DNA of 64,000 nucleotides from an uncultured Candidatus Saccharibacteria bacterium. Its GTDB lineage: Bacteria; Patescibacteriota; Minisyncoccia; SW-4-49-11. Shown in pieces: positions 13,681-57,679 of this stretch (position 1 is its first letter; every line of letters begins with the position of its first letter). The DNA is taken from positions 68,886-132,885 of the forward strand of contig CAZPCB010000002.1 in NCBI GenBank assembly GCA_964585065.1, in the 5' to 3' direction. The position numbers and the translations under genes were made by a program. A model generated the notes under the pieces. That model saw nothing but the letters and a program-made list of their open reading frames with translations. It was not told where the DNA came from and made no database searches.

Positions 13681-13689
13681 TAGATAATT

Positions 13690-14343: not shown

Positions 14344-14550
14344 GCTTACGACAAAAGGAGCTGAGCGCTCCTTTTGATATGTGATATTGAATTGTATTGC
14401 TTAAGCAGATTTATAATATACACCCAACCATCATAAATGTCAAGAGATAACATTTATATAAAAACTAATAATATATTGTTATAGATTTGCATTTTTATCA
14501 GATATTAGGTAGAATAAACAAAAATAGTCCATATATTACTTATTTTTGTA

Positions 14551-34451: not shown

Positions 34452-35771
34452 ATGAGAGGAGAAAAACAAAAAGGTTTTACATTATTAGAGGTACTTCTGG
34501 TAATAGCTGTAATAGGGATATTGGCAGCAATAGTATTGATAGCCATAAATCCAAATAAACAATTAGCCCAAGCAAGGAATGCAGAGAGAAGATCAGAAGT
34601 AAATACGCTATATAAAGCATTAGAACAATATCTAATAGATAATCAAGGATATCCAGTAGGAATAACAGAGACAGAGCAAGACATATGTATAAATAATAAT
34701 ACGACAGGATGTGTAAATCTAGGAGTATTGGTACCAGATTATGTAGCAGGTATACCAAAAGATCCAAGTGGAATAAGTTATAAGATAGGAATAGTAGATA
34801 GTAGGGTAAGAGTAAGAGCATCAGAAGCAGAATTAGGATCAACAATAGCAATAAGTGGAAGTGGGGGGAATATTGTAGCCTCGATAGCATTTGATTTAAA
34901 CATATCTCCAGCTATTTCAGGAAAAACTCAATGGAATTTCTTTTCAGATGGATCTCTAAATTTTTCTACACATGGTGAATGGACTATTATCCCATTGAGA
35001 GATATTACTGTTAACACTAAAATTTGGGGTGCAGGAGGAGCAAGTGGAGCAGTGTGGACTACGTCAAATTCTCTTACTGAAATCAGTCGTATGGGGAGCG
35101 GTGGTTCTGGAGGGTACAGTACAGGCTCTATTATACTGACAACTGGAAATACGTATATAATCCAAGTTGGTGAAGGAGGTAGTCGTCGCAATGGTATTGA
35201 TAGTAATGGTGGTGCAACATATCGTGCGGGGGGGTCCAATTCAAATATTGGAGGAGCTCAAGGTGGTGGATACTCGGGTATATTTATAACTAGTGTCATA
35301 CAGTCAAATGCTGTTATTATGGCTGGTGGAGGTGGTGCAGGATATGATCAAGATGGTGGGTGGTGTCCTTCTTCTGGTTCATCAGGAGCAGGTGGTGGTA
35401 ATGATGCTCAGAATGGGTTCAGTGCAGGTTTTCAGGGGGGGGGAGGTGCTACACAAATTGCTGGTGGTGGACCAGCAGCCTTTAATAATACAACAGCTGG
35501 GTCTGCTCTCAGAGGAGGGCTTGCAGGTAATGCGCATTTTCATTCCGGAGGAGGGGGTGGTGGGTATTTTGGAGGCGGCGGAGGTAATATCTGTGGAGGC
35601 GGTGGGGGATCTGGTTTTATCAATCCTGCTTTTGTGATCAATGGGTCAACACAGACTGGTAATGGATCAACTCCAGCTAACTCTAGTGATCCTATGAGAT
35701 TAGATTCGGGACAAGGTAGTGATAGTACTAGTAAGGCCACGGATGGGCGTATTATATTAATGCCTATTTAA
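34452..35771 (+). CDS. Type IV pilin-like protein (prepilin leader MRGEKQKG/FTLLEV) with large Gly-rich C-terminal domain
   Basis: Class III signal peptide G|FTLLEVLLVIAVIGILAAIVLIAINP; C-terminal runs GGGGGGYFGGGGGNICGGGGGSGF. Confidence 0.65.
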   Translation: MRGEKQKGFTLLEVLLVIAVIGILAAIVLIAINPNKQLAQARNAERRSEVNTLYKALEQYLIDNQGYPVGITETEQDICINNNTTGCVNLGVLVPDYVAGIPKDPSGISYKIGIVDSRVRVRASEAELGSTIAISGSGGNIVASIAFDLNISPAISGKTQWNFFSDGSLNFSTHGEWTIIPLRDITVNTKIWGAGGASGAVWTTSNSLTEISRMGSGGSGGYSTGSIILTTGNTYIIQVGEGGSRRNGIDSNGGATYRAGGSNSNIGGAQGGGYSGIFITSVIQSNAVIMAGGGGAGYDQDGGWCPSSGSSGAGGGNDAQNGFSAGFQGGGGATQIAGGGPAAFNNTTAGSALRGGLAGNAHFHSGGGGGGYFGGGGGNICGGGGGSGFINPAFVINGSTQTGNGSTPANSSDPMRLDSGQGSDSTSKATDGRIILMPI

Positions 35772-36017
35772 TCAAACTATAATCTTTTAACGAGGTTTTA
35801 ATTGATTTATAATATATGGCTATAACAAAGAAGTTGTAGATATAATTAGTTAGATTTCGAAAAAATCAATTAAATTATATTAACTGTACTTAATGCTATT
35901 CTTTCTTCATAGCTTATTGAATATTTATCTGTTCGTCCACATACTTCTCTTAACTATCTTACTTCTTTTCAATTCCTTGATTTAATATCTACGATCTCCC
36001 CCATCTCATACATAATA

Positions 36018-36046
36018 TTGACAAGATATTAAAACTGTCCTATACT
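36018..36046 (+). promoter_or_regulatory. Sigma70-like promoter TTGACA-17-TATACT for the infA-rpmJ-rpsM-rpsK-rpsD-rpoA-rplQ operon
   Basis: Perfect -35, near-perfect -10, 17-nt spacer, about 40 nt upstream of infA ORF. Confidence 0.45.
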
Positions 36047-36082
36047 AGTGAATAGATTATTGATAGTGAGTTATTACAACCT

Positions 36083-36316
36083 ATGCTCGAAAGCCAGGAT
36101 TTGAACGAAAAAAACCTTCTTATACAAGAAGGCATTGTAAGTGAGGTATTGCCAAATACAACCTTTCGTGTTATACTGGAAAACAATTCGGAGATATTGG
36201 CTCATCTTTCGGGGAAAATGCGTATGCATTATATCAAAGTATTGCCAGGAGATAAGGTTACTGTAGAACTGAGTGCCTATAATCTCACACAAGGAAGAAT
36301 TACTAGAAGGAATTAG
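36083..36316 (+). CDS. infA: Translation initiation factor IF-1 (true start possibly the in-frame TTG at 36101 giving [13 protein letters not shown])
   Basis: S1-like fold [15 protein letters not shown]...[26 protein letters not shown]. Confidence 0.85.
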
Positions 36317-36324
36317 GATATCAT

Positions 36325-36441
36325 ATGAAAGTTCAGGCTTCAGTCAAAAAACGATGTATCAAATGTAAAGTCATCAAGCGAAAGCGAGTGATTCGTGTTA
36401 TTTGCGAAGCAAATCCACGACATAAGCAACGTCAAGGATAA
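36325..36441 (+). CDS. rpmJ: 50S ribosomal protein L36 (38 aa)
   Basis: Own translation [38 protein letters not shown]; zinc-ribbon Cys pattern; below ORF-track size cutoff. Confidence 0.85.
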
Positions 36442-36459
36442 TATAAGATAGAGTAAATT

Positions 36460-36843
36460 ATGGTTAGAATTGCAGGAGTTGTCATCCCAGAGTATAAAAA
36501 CGTTGAAATTGCACTCACCTATATATATGGTGTGGGACTTACTCGTTCTCAAAAGGTTTTAGCTATAACCGGTATTGATCCTTACAAGAAAGCAAAAGAA
36601 TTAGATGAAAAAGAAGTAGCCCTTCTTAAAGAATGTATTGAAAAGAATTATAAAATTGAAGGAGATCTTCGAAGAGAAGTAGCTACTAATATCAAGAGAC
36701 TTAAAGATATTGGATCATATCGAGGAAGTCGACATGCAAAAAAACTTCCAATTAAGGGAAGAACAAAAACAAATTCTCGAACTATTCGAGGAAATGTTGT
36801 CCGAACCATGGGTAGTGGGCGAAGAAAAGTAGAGAAGACATAA
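36460..36843 (+). CDS. rpsM: 30S ribosomal protein S13
   Basis: MVRIAGVVIP...GVGLTRSQKVL, conserved operon position. Confidence 0.95.
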   Translation: MVRIAGVVIPEYKNVEIALTYIYGVGLTRSQKVLAITGIDPYKKAKELDEKEVALLKECIEKNYKIEGDLRREVATNIKRLKDIGSYRGSRHAKKLPIKGRTKTNSRTIRGNVVRTMGSGRRKVEKT

Positions 36844-36860
36844 TCATTAAATAAGTATTT

Positions 36861-37289
36861 ATGGGAAAGAAGCGCGTTGCACAGAAGGGAGATACAGCAT
36901 CTGGACTAAAAGTCGGGGTAAAGGAAACTTCATCTAAGAAAAAAGTATCTCGAGGAATCGGATATATTATTTCTACATATAACAACACTATGGTTTCTTT
37001 AGCTGACCTTTCAGGGAATACTCTTGCATGGTCTTCCTCTGGAGCTCTTGGATTCAAAGGAGCAAAAAAAGCAACTCCATATGCTGCTACTCTTGTTGCA
37101 AAAACTGTAGTAGAAAAAGTAAAGAAAACTGGGCTTGAGGATATTAAGGTTATTATTAAAGGTGTAGGACCAGGAAGAGAAGCTTCTATTCGAGGTCTTG
37201 CAGCAGCTGGACTCAATATCTTGTCCATTAAAGATTTGACTCCAGTTCCTCATAATGGAACCCGTGCACGTAAGCCAAGAAGAGTATAA
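36861..37289 (+). CDS. rpsK: 30S ribosomal protein S11
   Basis: GYIISTYNNTMVSLADLSGNTLAWSSSG...TPVPHNG. Confidence 0.95.
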   Translation: MGKKRVAQKGDTASGLKVGVKETSSKKKVSRGIGYIISTYNNTMVSLADLSGNTLAWSSSGALGFKGAKKATPYAATLVAKTVVEKVKKTGLEDIKVIIKGVGPGREASIRGLAAAGLNILSIKDLTPVPHNGTRARKPRRV

Positions 37290-37305
37290 TTGAGTATAAG
37301 AGTAT

Positions 37306-37905
37306 ATGTATAGTCGTAAGAAAGTTAAAATCTGTAGAAAATTTGGAGAAAAAATCTTTCCAGAGATTAAGATTAGTGATGAGCGTTTAGCTAAAGCTCC
37401 TGGAGTACATGGAGCTAAGCGACGTCGATCTGTTTCTGAATTCGGAAAACAGCTTCAAGAAAAGCAAAAAGTGAAATATGTATATGGACTTCGTGAAAAG
37501 CAATTCCGACGATTTTATGAAAAAGCTTTGGCTGATGCAGAACCTACTCCTACTGCTTTACTTCGTATTTTAGAGAGCAGACTTGATAATGTAGTATATC
37601 GCTCACATATGGCTGCTACCCGAGAACAAGCTCGACAAATGATTTTACATGGACATATTTTAGTGAATGGTAAAAAAGTTACTATTGCGAGCTTTATCGT
37701 AAAGCCCGGAGATATTGTTACTTACTCAGCAACTAAATCAAAACTTGTTGCTGAATATCGAGAAAAACTCAAGGATTCTGAACTACCAACTTGGCTTACT
37801 TTAGATAAGAAAGCACATAAAGTAGAAATTGCTCATACTCCAGGAGTGGAGGAGCTCAGTCAGAACTTCGACATTGCCCTCGTGATTCAGTATTATTCCC
37901 GATAA
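37306..37905 (+). CDS. rpsD: 30S ribosomal protein S4
   Basis: LESRLDNVVYRSHMAATREQARQMILHGHILVNGKKV. Confidence 0.95.
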   Translation: MYSRKKVKICRKFGEKIFPEIKISDERLAKAPGVHGAKRRRSVSEFGKQLQEKQKVKYVYGLREKQFRRFYEKALADAEPTPTALLRILESRLDNVVYRSHMAATREQARQMILHGHILVNGKKVTIASFIVKPGDIVTYSATKSKLVAEYREKLKDSELPTWLTLDKKAHKVEIAHTPGVEELSQNFDIALVIQYYSR

Positions 37906-37923
37906 TAATAATCCAATACATCT

Positions 37924-38856
37924 ATGCCTAATCATATCATCCTTCCTAAATCACCAGTACTCGTAAAAGAAGTAAATGCTTCTCAAGCAAGTTATGCTAT
38001 TGAACCTCTTAATCCAGGATATGGAGTAACTATTGCTAATTCGCTTCGAAGAGTTATGTTATCTTCTCTAGAGGGGGTTGCAGTTACTCATTATAGTATT
38101 AAAGGTGTAAGCCATGAATTCAGTACTATTCCTCATGTTTTAGAGGATGTTATTGATATTACCCTTAATATTAAGGCATTACGATTCAATGCAGTAATTG
38201 ATTCTCCTACAATTCTTACCATTAAGGCTCAAGGGTCTAAAGTTGTAACAGGAAAAGATATTAAACTTCCAGGAGGTATAACTATTATTAATCCAGAAGC
38301 TCCTATACTTACTCTTACTGATAAAGATGCAAAGGTAGAAATTGAACTTGTGATTGAAAAAGGTGTTGGATTTAGAAAAGAAGCAGAACAAGAAGGACAG
38401 GCAGAAGTTGGTCTTATTGCAGTAGATTCCATTTTTACCCCAGTGGTAAGAGTTTCTTATGATGTAGAGGATACTCGAGTTGGAGACAAAACTAATTATA
38501 ATAGAATTGTATTCCATATTACTACTGATGGAACTATTGCTCCTGTAGATGTAATTACCAAATCAGCAGCTATTCTAGTAGAACAATTCTCAGCTCTTAG
38601 TGGAGATATTGCTATTACTCCAGCTGTAAAAGAAGAGGAACAAGAGTCTTCAGAACTTGAAGTATCAAGTATCAAGATTGAAACTCTTGATCTTCCACAA
38701 AGAACTATTAAGGCTTTAGAGTCAGCAGGAATTAAGAATATTGCTCAATTAGCACAATTTACTAAGGCTGATTTATTAGAAATCAAGGGATTATCAGCAG
38801 CTGCTATCAAGAAATTGATAGAACAAGTAGCTGTATATGATATAACTCTTGCATAA
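37924..38856 (+). CDS. rpoA: DNA-directed RNA polymerase alpha subunit
   Basis: N-terminal dimerisation domain GYGVTIANSLRRVMLSS, C-terminal alpha-CTD LDLPQRTIKALESAGIKNIAQL. Confidence 0.95.
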   Translation: MPNHIILPKSPVLVKEVNASQASYAIEPLNPGYGVTIANSLRRVMLSSLEGVAVTHYSIKGVSHEFSTIPHVLEDVIDITLNIKALRFNAVIDSPTILTIKAQGSKVVTGKDIKLPGGITIINPEAPILTLTDKDAKVEIELVIEKGVGFRKEAEQEGQAEVGLIAVDSIFTPVVRVSYDVEDTRVGDKTNYNRIVFHITTDGTIAPVDVITKSAAILVEQFSALSGDIAITPAVKEEEQESSELEVSSIKIETLDLPQRTIKALESAGIKNIAQLAQFTKADLLEIKGLSAAAIKKLIEQVAVYDITLA

Positions 38857-38904
38857 AAGCTATAAATAAGGTACAATTGAGTGCATTAACAGGATCACAA
38901 GACT

Positions 38905-39255
38905 ATGAATAAGGGAAATAAGTTACATAAAATAGGGCGAAATCGAGAGCAAAGAAAAGCACTTTTGCGAAGTCTTGCTAATGATTTGATTATTCGTGGT
39001 TCTATTACCACTACTGAGGCTAAGGCTAAAGCTTTACAACCATTTGTAGAGAGAATGGTAACTCATAGTAAAAAAGGATCTATTGCATCTCGTCGTTATG
39101 TATTACGATTTTTGACCAAGGGAGCAACTCATAAATTATTTGAAGATATTGCACCGACTTATACTGAGAGAGTGGGAGGATATACTCGTATTATCAAAGC
39201 TCCTATTCGAGTAAGTGATGTCAGTAAAATGGCGGTAATTGAATTAGTTAAGTAA
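38905..39255 (+). CDS. rplQ: 50S ribosomal protein L17
   Basis: LGRNREQRKALLRSLANDLIIRGSITTTEAKAK. Confidence 0.9.
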   Translation: MNKGNKLHKIGRNREQRKALLRSLANDLIIRGSITTTEAKAKALQPFVERMVTHSKKGSIASRRYVLRFLTKGATHKLFEDIAPTYTERVGGYTRIIKAPIRVSDVSKMAVIELVK

Positions 39256-39261
39256 GTTTAT

Positions 39262-39627
39262 ATGCAAAGAGAAATTATTACCATTGATGCTGAGAATAAA
39301 CGATTAGGAGCACTTGCTACCGAAATCTCTAGCCTTCTGATAGGAAAAAATTCAGCACAATTTGAATATCATATTGATGGGGGAGCTAAAGTTATTGTAT
39401 ATAATACCAATAAGCTTTCTATTCATCCAAATAAAATTGCTTCTAAAACCTATTATCGACATAGTGGATATCCAGGAGGAATTAAGTCAATTACAGCAGA
39501 AAAGCAAATGGCTAAGGATTCTACTGAAGTTTTGAGAAAAGCAGTATATGGTATGCTTCCAAAAAATCGACTAAGAGCTAAGATGCTAACTCGATTAGTA
39601 TTACATAAGAATGATATAACGAAATAA
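39262..39627 (+). CDS. rplM: 50S ribosomal protein L13
   Basis: LGALATEISSLLIGKN...YYRHSGYPGG, followed by rpsI. Confidence 0.9.
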   Translation: MQREIITIDAENKRLGALATEISSLLIGKNSAQFEYHIDGGAKVIVYNTNKLSIHPNKIASKTYYRHSGYPGGIKSITAEKQMAKDSTEVLRKAVYGMLPKNRLRAKMLTRLVLHKNDITK

Positions 39628-39629
39628 GT

Positions 39630-40046
39630 ATGGCAACGACTAAGACTACAGCAAGTCATTATTATGAAGGAGTAGGACGACGAAAATCTGCAACTGCAAG
39701 AGTTCGAATTACCCTTTCACGAAAAAAAGAACATAGTTTTGTAGTTAATGATAAAGCTATAACTGAATATTTTGATTTAGTGGAGCAACATAGTAATATT
39801 ATAAAGCCTTTATCTGTACTTGGAGTAGAGAATTTTGATATTACGGTTAAAGTATCAGGAGGTGGAATTACTGGACAAGCAGATGCTATACAGCTTGGTA
39901 TTGCAAGAGCTTTAGTAAAATATGATGAAAGTTTGAAAAAACAACTCAAAGATAATAATTATCTTACTCGAGATCCAAGAGGAAAAGAAAGAAAGAAGCC
40001 AGGACTCAAAAAAGCTCGTAAATCCCCACAATGGGCAAAACGATAA
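39630..40046 (+). CDS. rpsI: 30S ribosomal protein S9
   Basis: YYEGVGRRKSATARVRI...C-terminal RKKPGLKKARKSPQWAKR. Confidence 0.9.
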   Translation: MATTKTTASHYYEGVGRRKSATARVRITLSRKKEHSFVVNDKAITEYFDLVEQHSNIIKPLSVLGVENFDITVKVSGGGITGQADAIQLGIARALVKYDESLKKQLKDNNYLTRDPRGKERKKPGLKKARKSPQWAKR

Positions 40047-40056
40047 AGAGTATTCA

Positions 40057-40084
40057 AAAGAGAGGAGTATATCCTCTTTTTTGA
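40057..40084 (+). terminator. Rho-independent terminator (AGAGGA-GTATA-TCCTCT + T5)
   Basis: Hairpin + T-run right after rpsI. Confidence 0.6.
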
Positions 40085-40128
40085 TTCTATATACAAATAT
40101 GATATAGTAATTATGGATAATAAAAAAT

Positions 40129-42837
40129 ATGCAAATAGAATACAAACAGCGCAAAGGATTTACGTTAATTGAGATACTTTTGGTAATAGCCTTAATGGGT
40201 ATATTATTAACTACCGTGCTAGTTGCAATTAACCCTAGTAGACAATTAGCACAAGTTCGTAATGCTCAGAGACAAAGTCATATGCAGGCTTTGCAAAAGG
40301 CCTTAGACTTTTATGCTACTAAAAATGAGGGATCATATCCTCCAGGAGTTACAAGTTCTTATCAAGATGTATGTAATACGGGGACTGAAATAGTAGGAGG
40401 AGTAACCAATTGTACGGGTAAATTAGATTTACGTATTCTTGTCCCAACATATATTGTCGGTATTCCAAAAGATTCACAAGCTATTGGTACTAGCTCGGGA
40501 TATTCGGTAGCACTTAATTCATCTAATAACGGTATTAGTTTAACTAGCGATAAAGCAGAATTAGGATCTACTATCGCTATTAATAAAATAATACAATCAA
40601 GCTATTCAGGATATATAGATTCTAGCTTGGATTCAGATAAACCGGTTGGTTTTGATAATGCTGTGAATGTTGTTTTGCAGCAAAGCAATGGTAAGTTAAT
40701 TGTAGGGGGTTATTTTACTAGTTATAAAGGAGTACCAGCAAATTCTATAATACGCTTAAATAGTGATGGAAGTATAGATAACACTTTTAATGTGGGAACG
40801 GGATTTGATTCTGGTATTAGTACAGTAGTAAGGCAAAGTGATGGAAAATTCGTCATTGGGGGACAATTTGGTAATTATCAAGGTGTGTCAGCAACTAGAA
40901 TAATACGTCTTAATAGTGATGGGAGCAGAGACAATACATTCAATATGGGGACTGGTTTTGCTAGTAATTACTTTGATGGTGCTGTGACTAACATTTTACT
41001 ACAAAGTGATGGAAAATTAGTAGTAGCAGGATATTTTTGGACATACCAAGGAGTATCGGCAAATGGAATAATACGTCTTAATAGTGATGGGAGCAGAGAC
41101 AATACATTTAATATGGGGACTGGTTTTGATAGTGGAACTAATAGTATTATACTACAAAATGATGGTAAGGTTTTAGTAACAGGCTCTGAATTTACTAGTT
41201 ATCAAGGTGTTTCAGCCAGTAGAATAATACGTCTTAATAGTAATGGGAGTAGAGACAATACATTTAATATGGGTGCAGGATTTGATAATTATGTAACTAA
41301 AGTAATACAACAAAGTGATGGAAAATTTGTCATTGGTGGAGGCTTTACCACCTATCAAGGAGTATCCGCAAATAGAATAATACGTCTTAATAGTGATGGG
41401 AGCAGAGATAATACATTTAATATCGGGACCGGTTTTAATGGAAATGGTACCTTCTCAGGATTTTGGGACGGTGGGATAAGTAGTATTGTGCAGCAAAGTG
41501 ATGGGAAATTGGTCATTGGTGGAGGATTTACTAGTTATCAAGGTGTTTCTTCGGGTACTAGCATCATACGTCTTAATAGTGATGGGAGTCGAGACAATAC
41601 ATTTAATATAGGTACTGGTATAGATACTTATGTAAGGATAGTTATGCAGCAGAGTGATGGTCAAATAATTGTAGGGGGAGACTTTACGACTTATAAAGAA
41701 GTCCCAGCAAATAAAATAATACGTCTTAATAGTGATGGGAGTCGAGATAGTAGTTTTAATATAGGGCTTGGACTAAATGGTGCTGTGAATACTGTTATAC
41801 AGCAAAGTGATGGTAAGCTAGTGATAGGAGGAGCATTTACTGGATATAGGGAAGTATCTTCAAAGAGAATAATGCGTTTAAATAGTGATGGAAGTCGGGA
41901 CAGTAGTTTTAATATCGGGACTGGTTTTGATGGGGGAGATGTTTATATCGTTGTACAGCAGAGTGATGGTAAATTAATGGTAGGGGGCTATTTCAGTAGT
42001 TATCAAGGAAGCTCAGCAAATAATATAATACGCTTAAACGCAGATGGAACTCGAGATAATACTTTTAATGTGGGAACCGGCTTCAGCTGTGCTTGTGGTA
42101 GTGGTGTAGGATCTATTGTACAACAAGCAAGTGGTAAATTAATCGTAGTGGGAAGCTTTACTACGTATCAAGGAGGGTCAGTAACAAATATAATACGCCT
42201 TAATAGTGATGGAAGTAGAGATAATACTTTTAATGTGCATGCTGGGTTGAATGCTGGGGCGCAGCAAATAATACAGCAAAGTGATGGTAAATTAATAGTG
42301 GTAGGACTCTTTACTCAGTATTTGGGAGTTTCAGCTAATAAAATAATACGTCTTAATAGTGATGGAAGTAGAGATAATACTTTTAATGTGGGAACGGGAT
42401 TTGATTCTGGTATATCTACGTTAATGCAACAAAATGATGGAAAATTAGTCATAGCAGGTAACTTTAGTACATATCAAGAATTGGCTGTAAATGTCATAAT
42501 ACGTTTAAATAGTGATGGGAGTCGGGATAGTGGTTTTAATTTTGTAAGTTCACCATTAAATTCTACACTAATGACTATTGCACAGCAAAGTGATGGTAAA
42601 TTAGTGATGGGAGGAAGCTTTTCGGGATCACAAGGAAATAGAATAATGCGCTTAAATAGTAATGGGAGTATTGATAATACCTTTAATACAGGTACTGGAT
42701 TTAATCCAGAAGATACTATTGGTTGGAATTGGGTATCTAGCATTATAAAACAAAGTGATGGCCAATTAGTTGTTGGTGGAACATTTACTAATTATAAAAA
42801 TCAACCAGCAGGATATCTGATCAGATTGAATCCATAA
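40129..42837 (+). CDS. Giant type IV pilin-like protein (leader MQIEYKQRKG/FTLIEI) fused to about 20 tandem delta-60-like beta-propeller repeats
   Basis: Class III signal peptide; repeated unit IIRLNSDGSRDNTFNxGTGF...QQSDGKLVIGGxFTxYQGVSAN about every 50-60 aa, matching delta-60 repeat consensus (DGSLDTSFG...QSDGKIVVAG). Confidence 0.6.
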   Translation: MQIEYKQRKGFTLIEILLVIALMGILLTTVLVAINPSRQLAQVRNAQRQSHMQALQKALDFYATKNEGSYPPGVTSSYQDVCNTGTEIVGGVTNCTGKLDLRILVPTYIVGIPKDSQAIGTSSGYSVALNSSNNGISLTSDKAELGSTIAINKIIQSSYSGYIDSSLDSDKPVGFDNAVNVVLQQSNGKLIVGGYFTSYKGVPANSIIRLNSDGSIDNTFNVGTGFDSGISTVVRQSDGKFVIGGQFGNYQGVSATRIIRLNSDGSRDNTFNMGTGFASNYFDGAVTNILLQSDGKLVVAGYFWTYQGVSANGIIRLNSDGSRDNTFNMGTGFDSGTNSIILQNDGKVLVTGSEFTSYQGVSASRIIRLNSNGSRDNTFNMGAGFDNYVTKVIQQSDGKFVIGGGFTTYQGVSANRIIRLNSDGSRDNTFNIGTGFNGNGTFSGFWDGGISSIVQQSDGKLVIGGGFTSYQGVSSGTSIIRLNSDGSRDNTFNIGTGIDTYVRIVMQQSDGQIIVGGDFTTYKEVPANKIIRLNSDGSRDSSFNIGLGLNGAVNTVIQQSDGKLVIGGAFTGYREVSSKRIMRLNSDGSRDSSFNIGTGFDGGDVYIVVQQSDGKLMVGGYFSSYQGSSANNIIRLNADGTRDNTFNVGTGFSCACGSGVGSIVQQASGKLIVVGSFTTYQGGSVTNIIRLNSDGSRDNTFNVHAGLNAGAQQIIQQSDGKLIVVGLFTQYLGVSANKIIRLNSDGSRDNTFNVGTGFDSGISTLMQQNDGKLVIAGNFSTYQELAVNVIIRLNSDGSRDSGFNFVSSPLNSTLMTIAQQSDGKLVMGGSFSGSQGNRIMRLNSNGSIDNTFNTGTGFNPEDTIGWNWVSSIIKQSDGQLVVGGTFTNYKNQPAGYLIRLNP

Positions 42838-42906
42838 TGGTTTTTATATACTAATTTAGTATATCTTTTATCCAATATATTGTAATGACATAGTTTACAA
42901 AGAGAA

Positions 42907-42932
42907 AAACCCTTCCTATGAAGGAAGGGTTA
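42907..42932 (-). terminator. Rho-independent terminator of the long minus-strand operon (CCCTTCC-TATGA-GGAAGGG; T-run on minus strand)
   Basis: 7-bp GC stem; minus-strand reading followed by TTTTTCTCTTT. Confidence 0.6.
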
Positions 42933-43199
42933 GCGAGAAAAAATCTCATCTACATCATTAAGTTGTTGAGGAGTTAAACTCTCTTGTTTTATTTGCATTA
43001 AGGTGCAAAGACGAATAATATCTGGTCTTTGAGGTTCTAATGGGCTTGGTATATTGGGATTGAGGCTAACTTTGTCTACTATTTTGTCCCATTCTACCAT
43101 TCTTAGTTTATAAGCCTTTTGTAATAAATCAGCCCTATGTACAGGGTCACTCTGTAACATCATTGTGTGGCTAAAATCAGTACGCATAAGAATGAACAA
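42930..43199 (-). CDS. Hypothetical protein (89 aa), last ORF of minus-strand operon
   Basis: ORF bounded by upstream gene and terminator; no motif. Confidence 0.3.
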   Translation of the reverse strand: MFILMRTDFSHTMMLQSDPVHRADLLQKAYKLRMVEWDKIVDKVSLNPNIPSPLEPQRPDIIRLCTLMQIKQESLTPQQLNDVDEIFSR

Positions 43200-43251
43200 G
43201 AATCACATCGCATATAAGTATGCCATAGACTTTTTAATTGTTCAAGACTTA

Positions 43252-44697
43252 TTAATTATTAAGATTAATAAGAGGGGTTCGAATAGGGAAGCTAAAGTAT
43301 TGAATAATATTGTCAGTATTAGTAATAACCGTCTTAGCATCATTACGTAATTTAATACTAGCTGTGCTAATTACATCATCAAGTAGTATATAAGAATTAA
43401 TGGAGCCTCTGGTATCGGACTCTACTACTTTTAAGGTATTATCTTCGATGAATAAAACATATTCTGAATTTGGTTCCCATAATTCAGATTGAACAATAGG
43501 TTTCTCACTAGTATATAATGTATCAAAATCTCCCTCTATACGAGATTTATACCCTTCAATAGTGTCAAGATATAGGATAGAGAGGCTATTTTTGGTCTTT
43601 AGGAGAGCTTTTTTTGAATCTAGGCTAAATTGTATATCTGTAATCTCAGAGTCTGAAATTTGGTTAAACCCTGGGGTTTTATCGCCAAGTGATTTCAGCC
43701 AAGTATGTTGCTTATCATCAAGAATAATAATATGACCTTGGCTTGGACTAATAAAAATTTTATCTATAATAATATCAGGCGTATTGATAGCAGTGGATTT
43801 CTTAGTGTCAAGATTATAAATACGAATAATATCTATAGTACTATCTTTATCAGAAGTATAGTAAATAGTGTTGTCTACAAAGTCACTATGTGTTATATCT
43901 GCTACAAGAACATCAGAACGGGTACTAAATTGTAGAGTAAGTTCATATAGTGCCCCTCCCTGTATGAATAATAATGTATCAGTATCCAGATTAACAATTT
44001 TAACGGGACTTGCATTAATATCAGTGATAGGGAATTGACTGGTAATATTGGTCAAAATAGGATTAGTATCAATATTAGTTATAACAAAATATTGAAATAC
44101 ATTATTGAGGGAAGTCTTGAAACTAAGAATATTTCCTGAACTATCCCAAGTAAAATCTGAATAATCTTGATTATCTAAACCTCCAAGCGCAATACTATCA
44201 GTAAGACGTTTACGCACTTTGGTATCAAGATTAAGAATCCAAAGTCCAGATTCCTTGGGATTATACGAGGTATATAGTATTGAGGAAGCATCAGGTACTC
44301 TTTGAATATTGCGAGCTGTTGAAAGATCGCTAAATTTTTCTAATTCAGGTTTTTCTGGGAAAAGAGTTACATCACTAATTAATTGTACAAAAGAAGGTTG
44401 TATCGATATTTTTTTAGCCCATGACTGATATCCTGGTAGAGATAATACTACATCTAAATCTTGTGGAGCAAGACCAACTTTCAAGAGTGGGCTTTTGGAT
44501 TCTAATTTGTCATTAATAGTAATTTCATAAGCAATTTTAGTATTGATTCGAACTCCTCCAGTAGAGGTGAGAATAGGTGCATCATTATCATCACGACTAA
44601 GTCTATAGCCCATGCCATATAAGGTGAGTATAGGAGCTATAATAAAGAAAAGAATTATGAGAGTACGGGCAAAGATTTTTTGTATATTTCTATTCAT
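43252..44697 (-). CDS. Secreted/membrane-anchored protein with PEGA-like domain and PD40/TolB-like beta-propeller repeats
   Basis: N-terminal TM; PEGA-like LKVGLAPQDLDVVLSLPGYQSW; repeated SxLYTSYNPKESGLWILNLDT-type strands. Confidence 0.35.
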   Translation of the reverse strand: MNRNIQKIFARTLIILFFIIAPILTLYGMGYRLSRDDNDAPILTSTGGVRINTKIAYEITINDKLESKSPLLKVGLAPQDLDVVLSLPGYQSWAKKISIQPSFVQLISDVTLFPEKPELEKFSDLSTARNIQRVPDASSILYTSYNPKESGLWILNLDTKVRKRLTDSIALGGLDNQDYSDFTWDSSGNILSFKTSLNNVFQYFVITNIDTNPILTNITSQFPITDINASPVKIVNLDTDTLLFIQGGALYELTLQFSTRSDVLVADITHSDFVDNTIYYTSDKDSTIDIIRIYNLDTKKSTAINTPDIIIDKIFISPSQGHIIILDDKQHTWLKSLGDKTPGFNQISDSEITDIQFSLDSKKALLKTKNSLSILYLDTIEGYKSRIEGDFDTLYTSEKPIVQSELWEPNSEYVLFIEDNTLKVVESDTRGSINSYILLDDVISTASIKLRNDAKTVITNTDNIIQYFSFPIRTPLINLNN

Positions 44698-44706
44698 ATA
44701 TATGTA

Positions 44707-45120
44707 TTATGCTTCATCTAAGGCTTTATTGGCAAGAGCATCAGCTTGTTTATTGAATTCTCGGCGAATATGTATAAAGTTTACAGATTTAAATTTAATT
44801 CTCAAATTCCAAATTTGAATAAAAGCTTTTTGAATTGCTTCATCTTTGAGCTCATAAATTCCTGTTAATTGTTTTTGGGCGAGTTCCGAGTCTAAATAGA
44901 CTTCAACTGCATATTTTTTAGTATTGACCTTGCCAACAAGAGATTTTGTTTTTTCAAGAGCAACCACAATAGCCTGATATTCAGCGTAATTATTGGTCGC
45001 AATACCAAGAGTCTGATGATGGGTTTTAATACTCCCATCTGGTAACTCAATTACTACTCCAAGAGAAGCTGGACCTGGATTTCCACGAGAAGCACCATCT
45101 GTATGTATTTTGATTGTCAT
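44707..45120 (-). CDS. rnhA: Ribonuclease HI
   Basis: IHTDGASRGNPGPASLGVVIE, YAEYQAIVVALE, catalytic DEDD layout, 137 aa. Confidence 0.85.
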   Translation of the reverse strand: MTIKIHTDGASRGNPGPASLGVVIELPDGSIKTHHQTLGIATNNYAEYQAIVVALEKTKSLVGKVNTKKYAVEVYLDSELAQKQLTGIYELKDEAIQKAFIQIWNLRIKFKSVNFIHIRREFNKQADALANKALDEA

Positions 45121-45171
45121 ATAAGATATAGGTTGATATTAGTATAGCATAAATATATTGAGGGGACAATT

Positions 45172-47001
45172 TTATGCTAGGGGAAGATTTGAGGGCGGAG
45201 AAAGTGTTGGATTAGCTTGTAATTCATTATCCAATGTATAATTGGGGTATAATTGTTCCCACAGCTCTTGGGGAGAATTATTTGGTGTTTTTAAATTCCT
45301 AAGATCAAGTAATCCAAATTGAATCATTTCTCTTGCAGTCTCAAGATTAATTCCAGATACTAATATGAGATTTTTTAGTTCAGGATATTTGAGAATTTCT
45401 TCTATTACAGCTTTCTGTTCCAAATATACCGTATCTTTGGTATCAGAAATCTGGGTATCTGTATTGTCAAAAGAAGAATTCCTGAATAATCTAGTTGAGC
45501 CGCTAAGTGCTGTTTTTATATATTCCTTGAATTTAGATGGACTTACTTGTTTCGATTGTAGAGAGCGAATACTTTCATAATATGTTTTTACACAATCTAT
45601 ATAAGTACCCCCAGATTGTTTGGTAGCCATGGCTCTCAGGTAATTAGGTTGAGGAGGGCTTTCATATCCAAATAATTCTTGAGATATTTGATCTTGATAA
45701 TACATAGCCCCACCTTCTTGGAATAATTCAGCTCTATCTCCGGCAATTTGACTGGAATGTGTATAGAGAGGTAAACCAATTTGGGCAGTATTTTCTCTTT
45801 GAAGAATATGAATTATTTCATGAGTAGCTGCCTTGGTAATTATTTTCTGAATATCCATTTCGGTAGCAGGGATTAATAATGTTTTACTTTGACTATCTAT
45901 TGCAAGAGTGTCTTTACCCGGTCTAATATAGCATCTCCATTTATTATCTGCCGGGTTTATATTTTTGGTTACTTGTTCAGCATCGGCGGGATATTCGCTT
46001 AATAGGTCATAGCTTGCGAGAATTTGGTCTAAATATTGTTTTGCCATTTCAGGAGTGATATTCTTCTCTTCTAATTTTTCTTGGTCTAGGCCTTTTTGTA
46101 AGAGGATTTGAGGCTTTTCTTGATTAATTGATTTGTTTAATTCAGCAATATGATCAGCCATTGTTAATAGATGATTATCTACTTGATTATAATTACCCGT
46201 ATCAGTATCAAGTGTACTTACTCCATATATAAATTTATCTAATTTGTATGGGGGTTTATGTGGAGTATGGGATTCTTCGCTCCGTAAAAATGTTTCTTGT
46301 TCTTTAGTTTCTGCAATGATGACATTAATTCTTTTAATTAATGCTTGTACGCGAAATATTTTAGCATGTATTAAAGCTTTACTTATATCGGTAGTGTCAG
46401 AAGCCTCTTCGGCATATAAGTCAGATCGCTTTTGTTTTAATTCTTGCCTTATTGCTTCTAACCCTTCAATTTTTGCTGTTAAGTTAGCAGGATATTGAAT
46501 ATAGGTGAGTTTTTCTGGGTTTTCAATATTCTCTATATCAAGTTCTCCCGTATCAGGATGAATATGTTGAGATAAAGTCTCTACCATAGTATCAGTATTC
46601 CAATCCGTACTCATTTTTACTAAATCTGTTATGATTTTGGGTTTTAATGTTCTCAGAATTGCAATATTTTCCCTAATATCAATGTCTCCTTCAAGGGATA
46701 CAAATTCAGGAATTTCTTTTAAAATAGCCTGACCCTCTGATGTATCAAAATACTCGGGATATAAAACTTTTTTACCAGTTGCTAACTTATAGTATTCTGC
46801 TAGTTTTTCTACAAAAGGATTCTCAAATTCTATTAAGTTCTGCTTTTCCTCCTCAGAAAGTATTTCCTTTTTTCTTTCACCAGATTCATATTGAGCTATT
46901 TCATATAATAATATTTGAGCTGAATAGGATGGACGCTCTGGATATAATTGAGGTTTATGTTCAGATTTAGGTTCAGTATTCTCAGAAGATTCTATCGACA
47001 T
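45172..47001 (-). CDS. DUF1704/MATCAP-like gluzincin metallopeptidase homolog (HExxH + QEGGA motif)
   Basis: ATHEIIHILQ (HExxH) followed about 30 aa later by AELFQEGGAMYY resembling the QEGLA motif of TIGR02421/DUF1704. Confidence 0.45.
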   Translation of the reverse strand: MSIESSENTEPKSEHKPQLYPERPSYSAQILLYEIAQYESGERKKEILSEEEKQNLIEFENPFVEKLAEYYKLATGKKVLYPEYFDTSEGQAILKEIPEFVSLEGDIDIRENIAILRTLKPKIITDLVKMSTDWNTDTMVETLSQHIHPDTGELDIENIENPEKLTYIQYPANLTAKIEGLEAIRQELKQKRSDLYAEEASDTTDISKALIHAKIFRVQALIKRINVIIAETKEQETFLRSEESHTPHKPPYKLDKFIYGVSTLDTDTGNYNQVDNHLLTMADHIAELNKSINQEKPQILLQKGLDQEKLEEKNITPEMAKQYLDQILASYDLLSEYPADAEQVTKNINPADNKWRCYIRPGKDTLAIDSQSKTLLIPATEMDIQKIITKAATHEIIHILQRENTAQIGLPLYTHSSQIAGDRAELFQEGGAMYYQDQISQELFGYESPPQPNYLRAMATKQSGGTYIDCVKTYYESIRSLQSKQVSPSKFKEYIKTALSGSTRLFRNSSFDNTDTQISDTKDTVYLEQKAVIEEILKYPELKNLILVSGINLETAREMIQFGLLDLRNLKTPNNSPQELWEQLYPNYTLDNELQANPTLSPPSNLPLA

Positions 47002-47055
47002 TTTGATATAATGACTATTTTATATTATTATATCATGGAGATATTAAATACAAAA

Positions 47056-48477
47056 TTATTTTCTAGGATCAATGATAAATCGCTTTAGAGAGTTTTCCCC
47101 AAGAATTATAGGGTATTTGAGCCCAGTACGAGTAATAATATTAGCTTTTGTTTCAAATATTTCATCACCTACTTGAATTTTAATATAAATAATAGGTCTA
47201 TAGGAATATCCATGACTACTATGAACCTTTGAAACTCCAACTATGTCAGGATGCTCTTCAATTTTTTGCCATATTTTATCTTTGGATAAAGTATTTATCT
47301 CGTCTAAAGTAAGTACAGGTTTAATATGAAATGTTTGCATATATGTTAATACATCCTTATATCCCAAGGCAATAGCTAGGCTCTCATCAATAGATGTTTT
47401 TCCCGCACCAGTATCAATTTTTGCTTGTACTTTTTGCTGCTGATCATCTTTTCCAAATAAGGTAATTTCCTCAATAAGCCCAATCACTTGTCGTCCAGTA
47501 ATTTCCTCAATTTCTTCTTCAATTTCTCCTCCGAACAAATCTTTTGCCAGTCTAATAGCTCTTTTTACTGTTTTTACTTTAAGACCTTTTACTTTTTGTA
47601 ATCTTTCTTTGAGTGGTGCGAGATTAGCAATTTGAATAGCGAGTCCTGGACGGGCATTAGCCTCTAATACTACAGGTCCTGCATCACGGTCAATGGCAAT
47701 ATCTACTCCCGTAAACCCTAATTTAGTGACATCAGCAGTACGAATCGCAATATCCAATATAGTATTCCAATACGGTATACGTATACCAGACAGACTAGTT
47801 TCTGTTCCTGGTATGGTATCGATAAATTTTTCTCGCATAATAGCATTGGTAGTAACTCCTGTTGCCATATCAATACCGATACCAATTCCGCCTAGATGAA
47901 GATTGGCTTTACCATCAGATTCCTTGGTAGGAATTCGTATCATTGCCATTACAGGAATACGATTGAATACAATCACGCGAATATCAGGAATTCCTTTATA
48001 GGCTAAGTGTTTGAATGATTTATTAATCTTAATTCTCTCCTCAAAGAAGGCCACATCGGGGCTATTGGTACGAGAATACGTACCATCAAGAATATTACTA
48101 ATATGATTATGTATCATGGTCTCACTCAGTTTTACCCCCTTGGTTTTCACCCATTGACGCTCTCCATCGCCGGTTCTTTTTTTGTCCTCTCCAAATATTA
48201 CCACAATTCCTTCCCCTCCAAATCCAGCAGTTGGTTTTAATACAAAACTTTTGGGAAGTTTATTATAATCAAAATTATTGAGTTTATCATATGATTGAAC
48301 AGTTGCTATGAGTTTTGGGGTAGGAATATTATTTTTTTGTAATTCTTTTTTGAATTTAATTTTATTATCTACTAATTTAACCCATTTGCTATAATTGTAT
48401 GGTTTAATATAAGAAAGATTGCGGGCATTCATCCCGAGTATTTTTTGACTAAATACAAATGATTCTAGCCAATTCAT
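47056..48477 (-). CDS. RimK-like ATP-grasp ligase (alpha-L-glutamate-ligase-related, GMNxRN N-terminus) fused to C-terminal retropepsin-like (RimB-type) aspartyl protease domain
   Basis: LGMNARNLSYIKPYN N-term; ATP-grasp core DIRVIVFNRIPVMAMIRIP...GKANLHLGG; C-terminal AKIDTGAGKTSID (DTGA) aspartyl protease motif. Confidence 0.6.
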   Translation of the reverse strand: MNWLESFVFSQKILGMNARNLSYIKPYNYSKWVKLVDNKIKFKKELQKNNIPTPKLIATVQSYDKLNNFDYNKLPKSFVLKPTAGFGGEGIVVIFGEDKKRTGDGERQWVKTKGVKLSETMIHNHISNILDGTYSRTNSPDVAFFEERIKINKSFKHLAYKGIPDIRVIVFNRIPVMAMIRIPTKESDGKANLHLGGIGIGIDMATGVTTNAIMREKFIDTIPGTETSLSGIRIPYWNTILDIAIRTADVTKLGFTGVDIAIDRDAGPVVLEANARPGLAIQIANLAPLKERLQKVKGLKVKTVKRAIRLAKDLFGGEIEEEIEEITGRQVIGLIEEITLFGKDDQQQKVQAKIDTGAGKTSIDESLAIALGYKDVLTYMQTFHIKPVLTLDEINTLSKDKIWQKIEEHPDIVGVSKVHSSHGYSYRPIIYIKIQVGDEIFETKANIITRTGLKYPIILGENSLKRFIIDPRK

Positions 48478-48480
48478 AGC

Positions 48481-49122
48481 CTATTGATTGCTAATAATTT
48501 TACGGAATCGGATATATTCAGAAATTCGGAGCCCCTCATAGCGTCCAAGGAATATAATTCCTGCAAATATAATCAAAATAATCCAAGGATTATAGAATAC
48601 TAAATCTCTTAAACTTGTAGTTGCTATGATAAGATTTCCAATAGCAGCAAGAATTAATGTCTCTACTGAGAGGATAACAGCAGTACGATACCCTTTTTCC
48701 ATTTGAGCATTGATGAATTTTTCTACCAAGGTGATAATAATCAAAATCTGATAAATCGAAGCCTGTACAAATACCGTGCTATCAGAGAATATTCCCCATA
48801 CTAGGCTCAAAAACATAGATAAGGCAGTAATAGAAAGTATCAAAGCCATTTTGGGTAAATACAAAATACGAATTTTGCGGAGTAAATATCTGACAATAGA
48901 AGCAATTACGAGAGATACAATAAAAATACTCACTCCATATTTGAAGCCAATTTGTGTTAAAGCAAAGGTGATAATAAGCGGTGTATAAATACCAAAAGCC
49001 TTAATCCCTACAATTTGTCGGGCTGCTACGATAAATCCTGCCATAATCGGAAACATCAAAAGAATGTCGATGGTTTCACGTGGCACACCATTATCCATAA
49101 GATATTGGAAGAAGATATCCAT
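48481..49122 (-). CDS. Seven-transmembrane protein (7TM component commonly paired with RimK-like ATP-grasp systems; no transglutaminase domain)
   Basis: Seven predicted TM helices over 213 aa; first gene of the minus-strand operon. Confidence 0.45.
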   Translation of the reverse strand: MDIFFQYLMDNGVPRETIDILLMFPIMAGFIVAARQIVGIKAFGIYTPLIITFALTQIGFKYGVSIFIVSLVIASIVRYLLRKIRILYLPKMALILSITALSMFLSLVWGIFSDSTVFVQASIYQILIIITLVEKFINAQMEKGYRTAVILSVETLILAAIGNLIIATTSLRDLVFYNPWIILIIFAGIIFLGRYEGLRISEYIRFRKIISNQ

Positions 49123-54001: not shown

Positions 54002-54285
54002 TTACAAAAGCAGATATTATATCAGTATGTAAGACAATTCAAGATCCAGAAATTAATATAGATATTTATACTATTGGCCTAATTTATGATATTACCATTA
54101 GCGAGCAGGATGATATTATTATTTTGATGACATATACTACGCCACTTTGTCCATTTGGGGGGCGTATACAAAAAGAATTAAAAGTAGCTCTTGCTATTCT
54201 TAAACCCCATTCTATTACTATTAATGTAACTTTTACTCCTCCTTGGAAAGTAAGTGACGAATTAAGAGAGGCTCTAGGAATATAG
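53998..54285 (+). CDS. DUF59/MIP18-family Fe-S assembly protein (SufT-like)
   Basis: 95 aa, ICKTIQDPEINIDIYTIGLIYDI..., position at end of suf cluster. Confidence 0.7.
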   Translation: MITKADIISVCKTIQDPEINIDIYTIGLIYDITISEQDDIIILMTYTTPLCPFGGRIQKELKVALAILKPHSITINVTFTPPWKVSDELREALGI

Positions 54286-54348
54286 GTTTGTTTGAAAAAA
54301 ACTGTATTCAGTGTTATAATATTTTTATAATTCAAAACTAAAACCAAT

Positions 54349-56178: not shown

Positions 56179-56214
56179 GCATAAAAGTTTTAAAAACACG
56201 ATAGAATTCATTTT

Positions 56215-56961
56215 ATGGTAAGCAGTAAAAATATTTTACTTATTTTCATACTATTACCCATATGTATATATTTAACTGCTACATCATATGGAATACTTCA
56301 AAAAGTACAGTTTTATCCAGAATGTCAGAATTACAGTTATGAGGAAAGAAAAAATTTCCTAAGTAAAACAACATATATTCATGGCACTATTACGGCTATA
56401 AAAGATGATAAAATAGATGTATATGTAAATTATAATCCTAGAAATAGATGGAAATGTTCACAGATGGAATCTCCATATAAAGACTATTTAGGAGCTACCA
56501 CAAAGATATATTCAGTTAACTTAAATCAGAATACCCCAATTTACTCAATGTATGAAGCTATTAGTACAAGTATTCCAAATGACCATACTCCTAGGCAAAA
56601 TCCTTCTCCTGAAGTCCAAATACCATCAGAAAATACATTTACTGGTTTAAGGTATAAAAAAGAAGATCTCACAATTGGATATAGAGTTGCAGTACTAGCA
56701 TCAAAACCAGTATTGAAAGAAAATTTATTTGATGCTGAATTGGTATTGATTTATCCAGAAAGAGATATTACATATTCTGCAATAATAACTATAATTATAG
56801 TTATTATTGCAGGTATAGGAAGCTATTACACAATAGAAGTTATTACTCATATACTTTATTATTTCACGAAAAATACCAATATACTTCTATTCTCTACAGT
56901 GATAAGACCAGTGGGAGCTATTGGGTTTTTTATATGGTATTTTTTATCACATTATACTTAA
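56215..56961 (+). CDS. Hypothetical bitopic membrane protein (N-terminal TM, soluble middle, C-terminal TM pair)
   Basis: Hydrophobic segments at both ends; very AT-rich. Confidence 0.35.
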   Translation: MVSSKNILLIFILLPICIYLTATSYGILQKVQFYPECQNYSYEERKNFLSKTTYIHGTITAIKDDKIDVYVNYNPRNRWKCSQMESPYKDYLGATTKIYSVNLNQNTPIYSMYEAISTSIPNDHTPRQNPSPEVQIPSENTFTGLRYKKEDLTIGYRVAVLASKPVLKENLFDAELVLIYPERDITYSAIITIIIVIIAGIGSYYTIEVITHILYYFTKNTNILLFSTVIRPVGAIGFFIWYFLSHYT

Positions 56962-56964
56962 TTT

Positions 56965-57561
56965 ATGAGATTACTTCAAAATTTTGTAGAAAATATATAT
57001 AATTTTATACCATTCGATAGTCAGCTTCTGACGGGATATATTATAATGCAAATAATAATTTTCACAATTATTAATATGTTTATACTATTAATTCAAATAT
57101 TAATAGTAAGATCTAAAATAAAAGAAACATTATATATAACTATCCCAATTCTTTTAATTAATAAAATATTAATTTTACCTATTCTCAACGATATAGTATT
57201 TATAACCCATGTATCATTAATATATGTTATGGTGTTCATAACCATATCAACTTTATTAGATATAGAAAGCTTTAAACTATATACGAATGATTACAAAAAA
57301 TTATGTAAATTTTATCAAATCATATCTATAATTTTACAAATACTTATTATAATTATTTTTATAACTCAGCCAATACTAAATCTACAAACTATCATTGGAA
57401 TAACTATATATTCGATACCCTTGATAATTGATATTGTTAATTTTAAATCAAATTTTAAAAATACGTTTAGACTAAATATTTATAAATATATATACCAATA
57501 TATCACTATAACTATATTAATTTTATTATCAAAAATAATAGTCCCTATACATTTTATGTAA
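56965..57561 (+). CDS. Hypothetical highly Ile-rich polytopic membrane protein (198 aa)
   Basis: About 6 TM helices; codon usage extremely AT-biased. Confidence 0.35.
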   Translation: MRLLQNFVENIYNFIPFDSQLLTGYIIMQIIIFTIINMFILLIQILIVRSKIKETLYITIPILLINKILILPILNDIVFITHVSLIYVMVFITISTLLDIESFKLYTNDYKKLCKFYQIISIILQILIIIIFITQPILNLQTIIGITIYSIPLIIDIVNFKSNFKNTFRLNIYKYIYQYITITILILLSKIIVPIHFM

Positions 57562-57589
57562 AACAACATAAAAGAACTCTCTCATATAA

Positions 57590-57679
57590 TAGTATCTCAA
57601 CTAAATCTAGTACTATTAATATCTCTTTACCCTGCCCTGGAAAATCAGTGATGAATTAAGACGGGCTTTAGGGGTGTGA
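57590..57679 (+). pseudogene. Ghost 3'-end fragment of a DUF59/SufT-like gene (encodes YLFTLPWKISDELRRALGV*)
   Basis: Roughly 75 percent nt identity and clear peptide similarity to the end of 53998..54285 (TFTPPWKVSDELREALGI*), including matching stop position. Confidence 0.5.

Follow-up and report, generated by a model that had tools for sequence, protein, structure and literature searches.

A putative modular type IV pilin with a 14-blade delta-60 repeat module encoded by an uncultured patescibacterium

We analyzed a 64,000-nucleotide (nt) stretch of DNA, referred to here as the window, from an uncultured Candidatus Saccharibacteria bacterium (contig CAZPCB010000002.1, positions 68,886 to 132,885 of the forward strand), focusing on one complete open reading frame (ORF) at positions 40129-42837 of the + strand, which encodes 902 amino acids (aa) plus a stop codon. 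The boundaries of this ORF are exactly those given in a first-pass annotation of the same DNA. We consider it probable that the gene belongs to a bacterium of the Candidatus Paceibacteria (Patescibacteria) and that its product is a modular type IV pilin consisting of a class III signal peptide, a pilin head of ~150 aa, a linker of ~20 aa and 14 delta-60 blades, the last of these serving as a pilus-displayed binding module. As judged from its sequence, the protein is a type IV pilin and a member of the delta-60/DUF5122 family, and its architecture is that of the modular pilins.

Signal peptide, pilin module and linker

The class III signal leader MQIEYKQRKG (positions 40129-40158, + strand) is 10 aa long, basic, and ends with a Gly at position -1. 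Cleavage by a prepilin peptidase is predicted between this residue (Gly10) and Phe+1. The leader is followed by FTLIEILLVIALMGILLTTVLVAI, which contains Phe+1, Glu+5 and a hydrophobic stretch of 24 residues. The prepilin motif KG/FTLIEILLVIA, from which the first-pass annotation had recognized a prepilin, is present, and both family models that describe such N-termini were matched above their cut-offs, PF07963 with 29.5 bits (cut-off 21.2) and TIGR02532 with 26.2 bits (cut-off 16.3).

The pilin module was assigned to aa 11-155 (positions 40159-40593, + strand) on the basis of an AlphaFold2 model of the head, profile matches and head homologs. Its predicted elements are, in order, the hydrophobic alpha1N segment with Glu+5, a helix that extends to about residue 65, a Cys loop, and a small beta-sheet ending in AELGSTIAIN. 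The loop carries a conserved Cys82/Cys94 pair; the Cys at position 82 is invariant in our alignment A2, and the equivalent Cys (position 80 of the homolog P0238) is invariant in alignment A4. The model of residues 1-175, built with 75 head homologs, had a predicted local distance difference test score (pLDDT) of 87.3 and a predicted template modeling score (pTM) of 0.72. It contains a helix (residues 13-65) that is broken near Pro36, and strands at residues 79-82, 122-130, 135-140 and 149-151; residues 156-175, which include the linker, were modeled with low confidence.

Among solved structures, a sequence profile of the head matched 17 sequences, each of which is a pilin or a pseudopilin. The best E-value was 1.2e-12; the match to GspG spans residues 1-96 of the GspG chain. 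A word-index search performed with the head only retrieved stand-alone pilins of ~150 aa from Minisyncoccia, Parcubacteria and Kaiserbacteria, at 30-60% identity, and the head can therefore be regarded as a complete pilin. An assignment to the pseudopilins of type II secretion systems or to the Com pilins was rejected, as the scores against the equivalog models of GspH (32.4 vs a cut-off of 80), GspG (28.5 vs 88.85) and ComGE (27.1 vs 49) were all too low; these three models match the N-terminal helix only.

The head is connected to the repeats by the Ser-rich linker IQSSYSGYIDSSLDSDK (aa 156-172, positions 40594-40644, + strand). The linker is predicted to be flexible, with pLDDT values of 51-58 in the head model and of 33-52 in the model of the whole protein.

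The delta-60 repeat array

The remainder of the protein was recognized by both available models of the repeat: TIGR02608 (delta-60) matched 13 stretches with a score of 322.6 bits (cut-off 76.5), and PF17164 (DUF5122) matched 14 stretches with 594.5 bits (cut-off 27). Splitting the sequence at the I[IM]RLN motif resulted in 13 full units of 49-62 aa, preceded by a part-unit that begins at about aa 173 and followed by a final LIRLNP strand. In total there are 14 complete blades, which occupy residues ~173-902 (~730 aa), and a hidden Markov model (HMM) built from the units themselves also finds 14. The first-pass annotation had described tandem delta-60 repeats of about 50-60 aa, which is borne out by the unit lengths and by the TIGR02608 score, whereas its figures of about 20 repeats and of about 780 aa of repeat sequence were both too high. 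The motif N-x-D-G-x-x-D is invariant across every blade and, going by a resemblance to the integrin FG-GAP repeats, might be a Ca2+-binding loop. The variable loops of the array are insertions at about aa 278-285, 437-449, 653-659 and 859-868.

An AlphaFold2 model of the whole protein, based on an alignment of 43 sequences, had pLDDT values of 80-90 over the repeats and of ~45 over the head, the latter because few alignment rows cover the head. The delta-60 blades are confidently predicted to adopt a beta-propeller fold, which is the one expected of the delta-60 family. The blade counts of related proteins were used to consider how the blades may be grouped. Among 123 delta-60 proteins examined, 14 blades were counted in 55 proteins, 19-21 in 42 and 25-28 in seven, and there are pilins with a single set of seven blades (P0311, 506 aa; P0278, 590 aa). 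Because these counts lie near multiples of seven and seven-blade pilins exist, we infer that the unit is a seven-bladed propeller and that the 14 blades most likely fold as two of them. The first putative propeller would be formed by blades 1-7 (aa 173-534, positions 40645-41730, + strand) and the second by blades 8-14 (aa 535-902, positions 41731-42834, + strand), which end with the family-conserved strand NQPAGYLIRLNP. An origin by duplication of a whole propeller, in which blade i would be closest to blade i+7, was rejected, since no such pattern can be seen in the identity matrix of the units.

Repeat DNA and integrity of the array

In view of the repetitive nature of the gene, the first-pass annotation had predicted recombinational expansion and contraction of the array as well as its collapse during assembly, on the grounds that several units were nearly identical at the DNA level. 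Compared as whole units, the repeats are 58-80% identical in DNA sequence (mean 68%) and 42-75% identical in protein sequence, and the longest exact internal DNA repeat measures 43 nt. Near-identity holds for one segment of the unit only, namely the 63-76 nt that code for IIRLNSDGSRDNTFN.GTGF, whose copies are 62-93% identical to a reference copy over 76 nt. The pair of tracts cited as an example (positions 40898-40960 and 41074-41136) matches at only 7 of 63 positions, since the second is 8 nt out of register. The true partner of the tract at 40898-40960, which starts a unit at aa 258, is found at an offset of 168 nt (positions 41066-41128; both on the + strand); the two copies are identical at 62 of 63 positions, and the 43-nt exact repeat lies within them. 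In these two copies 18 of the 19 codons for the same amino acid are identical, whereas the rest of both units has diverged. Units 2, 3 and 5 (positions 40898-41440) behave alike: over their first 21 codons, 16-18 of 19 same-amino-acid codons are identical, and their second halves are diverged. This codon pattern suggests short-tract gene conversion between blades, or a mosaic ancestry.

Independent copies of the gene were then considered. A protein identical to the pilin is present in NCBI (P0001, on a 234-kb contig), and a second one (P0121, 903 aa, 98% identical) is found on different contigs with the same layout, one of which, JBIIRM010000003.1 (here L005), belongs to a metagenome-assembled genome (MAG) of Candidatus Paceibacteria. 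P0121, which comes from an independent assembly, has the same 14 blades and retains all blade-specific loops. The fusion of a pilin head to delta-60 repeats recurs in the diverged proteins P0038 (on nine contigs), P0081, P0084, P0089, P0091 and P0100, from separate assemblies. Fourteen blades were counted in P0038, P0081, P0084, P0089 and P0100, and 13 were detected in P0091, so that, with the 98%-identical copy included, the count of 14 applies to six of the seven fusions in this comparison.

These observations bear on the possibility that the ORF is an artefact of assembly or annotation, be it a chimera of a pilin and a delta-60 protein or an array that was collapsed or expanded. The gene is internally repetitive, it comes from a metagenome-type assembly, and tracts of up to 76 nt are shared between units at up to 93% identity, all of which would favor such an error. 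However, no exact repeat is longer than 43 nt and whole units are at most 80% identical; a 98%-identical gene with equal numbers of blades and the same loops is present on a contig of another MAG; the fusion is found in at least six further diverged proteins of separate assemblies, one of them on nine contigs; and 14 blades is the mode of the family. An artefact is therefore highly improbable, and we consider it effectively excluded. The 14 blades of the independent copy argue against assembly collapse, of which there is no sign, and equally against a recent change in copy number. The predicted expansion and contraction likewise found no support in the mostly diverged repeat DNA, and because the blade counts of the family lie near multiples of seven, the count appears to be structurally fixed rather than free to expand and contract. 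Through the 43-nt exact repeats, rare unequal recombination could still occur.

The pilin head as a carrier of other modules

Two paralogous modular pilins are encoded in the window. The first (positions 34452-35771, + strand; 439 aa) carries a glycine-rich PF12810 module, and its head is 47% identical to that of the delta-60 pilin over the aligned N-terminal part. The second (positions 60695-61891, + strand; 398 aa), with a head 43% identical over the aligned N-terminal part, carries a module that matches PHROG 10356, a family of virion structural proteins, with an E-value of 8e-33. The N-termini of the three window pilins are nearly identical; the proteins align over ~150 aa, through AELGSTIAIN, and diverge at the linker.

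An exhaustive HMMER search with the head gave 19,319 matches at E <= 1e-3. About 123 of the best 150 of these matches are proteins of 260-870 aa in which the head is N-terminal (residues ~3-155), and the modules of 97 of these ~123 large relatives were surveyed by a Pfam scan. N_methyl was detected in 93 of the 97. The most frequent modules were Laminin_G_3, a ConA-like lectin module (27 proteins), DUF5122 (12) and Gly_rich_2 (10), followed by RCC1 (5), ArabFuran-catal (5), SBBP (4), sialidase-N (3) and Toxin_R_bind_N (3). PA14, GLEYA and F5/8-type-C were each seen in a single case, and fibrinogen-C and FGE-sulfatase-like modules are also present. The predicted repertoire is thus dominated by carbohydrate-binding and propeller modules. 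Since the head carries many other binding modules, the organism would hold a repertoire of pilus-displayed adhesins.

Comparison with known systems

Modular pilins were defined by Raynaud et al. (2021, PNAS, PMC8179133), who showed that PilB is an adhesin; in the Streptococcus sanguinis examples, PilB and PilC, the additional modules are a vWA and a lectin module, respectively (PMC8179133). The protein described here shares with them the class III signal, the small pilin module, the short linker, a bulky module that is not specific to pili, and a proposed role in adhesion. It differs in that the bulky module is a 14-blade delta-60 array of ~78 kDa, in that it is encoded by a bacterium of the candidate phyla radiation (CPR), and in being known from its sequence. 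The architecture is already catalogued in databases and is not a new kind of system: P0121 and P0084 bear the database name 'delta-60 repeat protein/prepilin-type N-terminal cleavage/methylation domain'. We take IPR013431 to be the InterPro entry for the delta-60 repeat. In Dataset S1 of Raynaud et al. (PMC8179133) the combination IPR012902-IPR013431 is given for five proteins, and IPR012902-PF12810, for two.

The conservation of type IV pili across Patescibacteria is high (PMC11623550), and a pilin with a propeller has been described in this superphylum. PilX2 of TM7x (Nanosynbacter lyticus, Saccharibacteria) is a minor pilin with a beta-propeller on which normal host binding depends, whereas pilus extrusion does not; upon its deletion host binding was 4.6% vs 10.6%, while pili were still formed, and a tip adhesin with a glycan ligand was proposed (PMC11623550). 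PilX2 and, by prediction, the window pilin carry their beta-propellers at the C-terminus, and RCC1 modules also occur on relatives of the head. PilX2, however, has one seven-bladed propeller of the RCC1 type and no predicted PilD signal, whereas the window pilin begins with a canonical prepilin signal, carries 14 delta-60 blades and lacks any match to RCC1; for these reasons, an assignment as a PilX2-type pilin was rejected.

The tip adhesins PilY1/PilC of type IVa pili likewise present a propeller at the pilus tip for adhesion and follow the logic of carrier plus effector set out by Raynaud et al. (PMC8179133). PilY1, however, is not a pilin but a protein that minor pilins keep in place at the tip, and its propeller belongs to family IPR008707. 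The window protein, which is itself a prepilin, had no Pfam match to the PilC/PilY1 family even at E-values up to 1, and this assignment was rejected as well. A further comparison is with surface proteins of Bacteroidota, which belong to the same repeat family as the window pilin (37-54% identity over ~80% of the query) and commonly have 14 blades. These delta-60/DUF5122 proteins are exported by means of a C-terminal sorting domain (PF18962) of the type IX secretion system (T9SS), whereas the window pilin has an N-terminal prepilin signal and a head.

Proposed function and alternative explanations

A pilus-displayed binding protein would come about as follows. The precursor would be inserted in the membrane and cut by the prepilin peptidase after Gly10. 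Type IV pilus machinery, whose genes would lie elsewhere in the genome, would then incorporate the protein through its hydrophobic N-terminal helix. Because the ~78-kDa module is far bulkier than the head, the protein would be a minor subunit of low abundance, located most likely at the pilus tip, from where the propellers would attach to a host cell or a surface by binding a ligand there, probably a glycan or a glycoprotein. An extracellular role fits the finding that many delta-60 homologs, on proteins of Bacteroidota, bear the T9SS sorting domain PF18962. The first-pass annotation had also proposed a propeller at the pilus tip or an adhesin. The fusion of a prepilin to a propeller agrees with the family models, the predicted structure, the head profile and the recurrence of the architecture, and a role as an adhesin is plausible; the location at the tip and the status of a minor pilin are what we infer from the bulk of the module.

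It is important to mention that several points weigh against this reading, in addition to the indirect basis of the tip location, the minor-pilin status and the 7+7 partition of the blades. Neither prepilin peptidase nor PilB, PilC, PilM or PilT was found in the 64-kb window by Pfam scans of ~40 ORFs, and the processing and assembly steps therefore rest on knowledge of the family. When the head model was compared with the PDB by Foldseek, the single pilin-like match was PulG, with a non-significant E-value of 0.13. The propeller matches obtained with Foldseek were generic (WD40-like, 9-19% identity), and neither a ligand nor an activity can therefore be read from them. In a sequence search with the whole protein no delta-60 protein was found among solved structures, the N-terminal helix alone being matched; and our search of the literature on the delta-60 repeat, DUF5122 or TIGR02608 yielded one modeling paper and no functional study, of a delta-60 pilin or otherwise.

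In the main alternative, export and membrane anchoring would be the only uses of the prepilin signal, so that the protein would be a binding or capture protein anchored at the surface or in a short pseudopilus-like stub. Archaeal sugar-binding proteins with class III signals, as in the 'bindosome' of Sulfolobus, provide a parallel. Such anchoring would be in keeping with the lack of pilus machinery genes beside the gene and in the related loci L001-L004, which contain similar fusions, with a ~730-aa module that is very bulky in comparison to the head, and with the presence of several giant prepilins per genome. On the other hand, the head is a full pilin module, 30-60% identical to stand-alone pilins of the phylum, in which the polymerization helix with Glu+5 has been kept, and the characterized relatives in design, the modular pilin PilB and the TM7x pilin PilX2, are tied to filaments. 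We therefore regard anchoring alone as unlikely, though not negligible. Less probable still, in our opinion, is an enzymatic role, in which the propeller module itself, or an enzyme for which it serves as a scaffold, would be delivered by the pilus and act on the host envelope, for example on glycans. The Foldseek matches do include catalytic propellers (GH74 xyloglucanase, the alkylating enzyme CylK, galactose oxidase and the lactonase Drp35), some relatives of the head carry ArabFuran-catal or FGE-sulfatase-like modules, and modular pilins with predicted peptidase modules were mentioned by Raynaud et al. (PMC8179133). However, identity to the catalytic propellers is only 10-14%, no enzyme family model was matched at a significant E-value, most of the sister modules on the head are lectin-like, and all 14 blades follow one repetitive consensus, as is typical of propellers that bind or act as scaffolds.

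Gene neighborhood and putative transcription signals

The pilin gene lies downstream of the cluster rpsM-rpsK-rpsD-rpoA-rplQ-rplM-rpsI, with the end of rpsI 82 nt 5' of its start. Within this interval we found a terminator-like hairpin with a 13-pair stem and a subsequent T-run (positions 40054-40084, + strand), and a promoter-like site composed of TTGATT, a 16-nt spacer and TATAGT, with an upstream TG (positions 40081-40108, + strand), which is separated from the start codon by 21 nt. Terminator-like sites were more frequent than in shuffled sequences (6 observed vs 0.9 expected); the window has a G+C content of ~35%. The promoter-like site is a consensus match only, and because such sites are not enriched over shuffles it constitutes weak evidence. 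The putative terminator and the promoter-like site set the pilin gene apart from the ribosomal-protein operon. No clear plus-strand terminator was found 3' of the pilin gene. On the - strand, the stop codon of an 89-aa ORF (positions 42930-43199) is immediately followed by a strong hairpin that has a T-run (positions 42908-42931), and this small ORF may therefore be a real gene.

Related loci and divergence

The loci of related fusions were compared with the window. L001, a 53-kb contig, is syntenic with it, sharing NrdR, PNPase, the ribosomal cluster, a 482-aa ORF and RNase H. In L001 two tandem delta-60 pilins (positions 7247-12571) are located upstream of infA, in the slot that is occupied in the window by the glycine-rich pilin, and none is present after rpsI. 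In L002-L004 a 953-aa delta-60 pilin directly precedes a 791-aa DUF285 prepilin (L002, positions 10001-15332). Judging from these arrangements, the turnover of giant pilin genes seems to take place at set positions around conserved operons.

Sequence divergence was analyzed by comparing positions 34469-45151 of the window with positions 222-10890 of L005, the contig of a sister strain, that is, between two genomes only. Both pilin genes are ~98.5-99% identical; the synonymous divergence (dS) is 0.017 for the delta-60 pilin gene, with a ratio of nonsynonymous to synonymous divergence (dN/dS) of 0.53, and 0.048 for the glycine-rich pilin gene, with a dN/dS of 0.30. For rpsM, rpsK, rpsD, rplM and rpsI, the dS values are 0.17-0.25 (dN/dS <= 0.05), and for the 481-aa ORF and rnhA they are 0.29-0.46, the highest value being that of rnhA (0.46). 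Low dS is not confined to the pilin genes, because values of only 0.04-0.09 were obtained for rpoA, rplQ and the ATP-grasp gene as well. This mosaic divergence between the two genomes might stem from recent recombination, or from a gene-specific sweep in which the pilin alleles were involved.

Other features of the window

Two segments of the window, ~45152-47039 and ~54274-57602, are absent from the otherwise collinear L005. The first contains a 609-aa ORF (positions 45172-47001, - strand). The second contains another 609-aa ORF (positions 54349-56178, + strand), with a poly-Q, Cys-rich N-terminus, beside ORFs of 248 and 198 aa. The ORFs of these two segments had no Pfam or PHROG match. A third 609-aa protein, encoded at positions 294-2123 (- strand), is an ATPase with TraG P-loop and VirB4/CagE-like matches, and may be part of the type IV secretion or conjugation-like system of Patescibacteria described in the literature. 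The possibility that the three 609-aa ORFs are copies of a mobile element was rejected, as they are unrelated to one another. An ATP-grasp protein fused to a Zn-protease-like domain (PF14397 plus PF05618; positions 47056-49122, - strand) is encoded next to a 7TM_transglut membrane protein (PF14402), with which it forms an apparent gene pair.

Implications

To our knowledge, Patescibacteria are ultrasmall, and all their cultivated members live attached to a host cell; in the single lineage that is amenable to genetics, a minor pilin with a propeller contributes to host binding. The giant pilins described here are candidate host-recognition adhesins: freshwater Paceibacteria appear to encode propeller pilins of far greater size, whose head also serves to carry many lectin-like modules. 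For the delta-60/DUF5122 repeat, the fusion provides a likely context of extracellular display. We tentatively suggest, as a possibility well short of probable, that the Paceibacteria-type head is a dedicated carrier onto which binding modules such as lectins, delta-60, RCC1 or SBBP propellers and glycine-rich domains are swapped, that the giant pilins would act as the host-recognition determinants of these episymbionts, and that recombination may transfer their genes from strain to strain.

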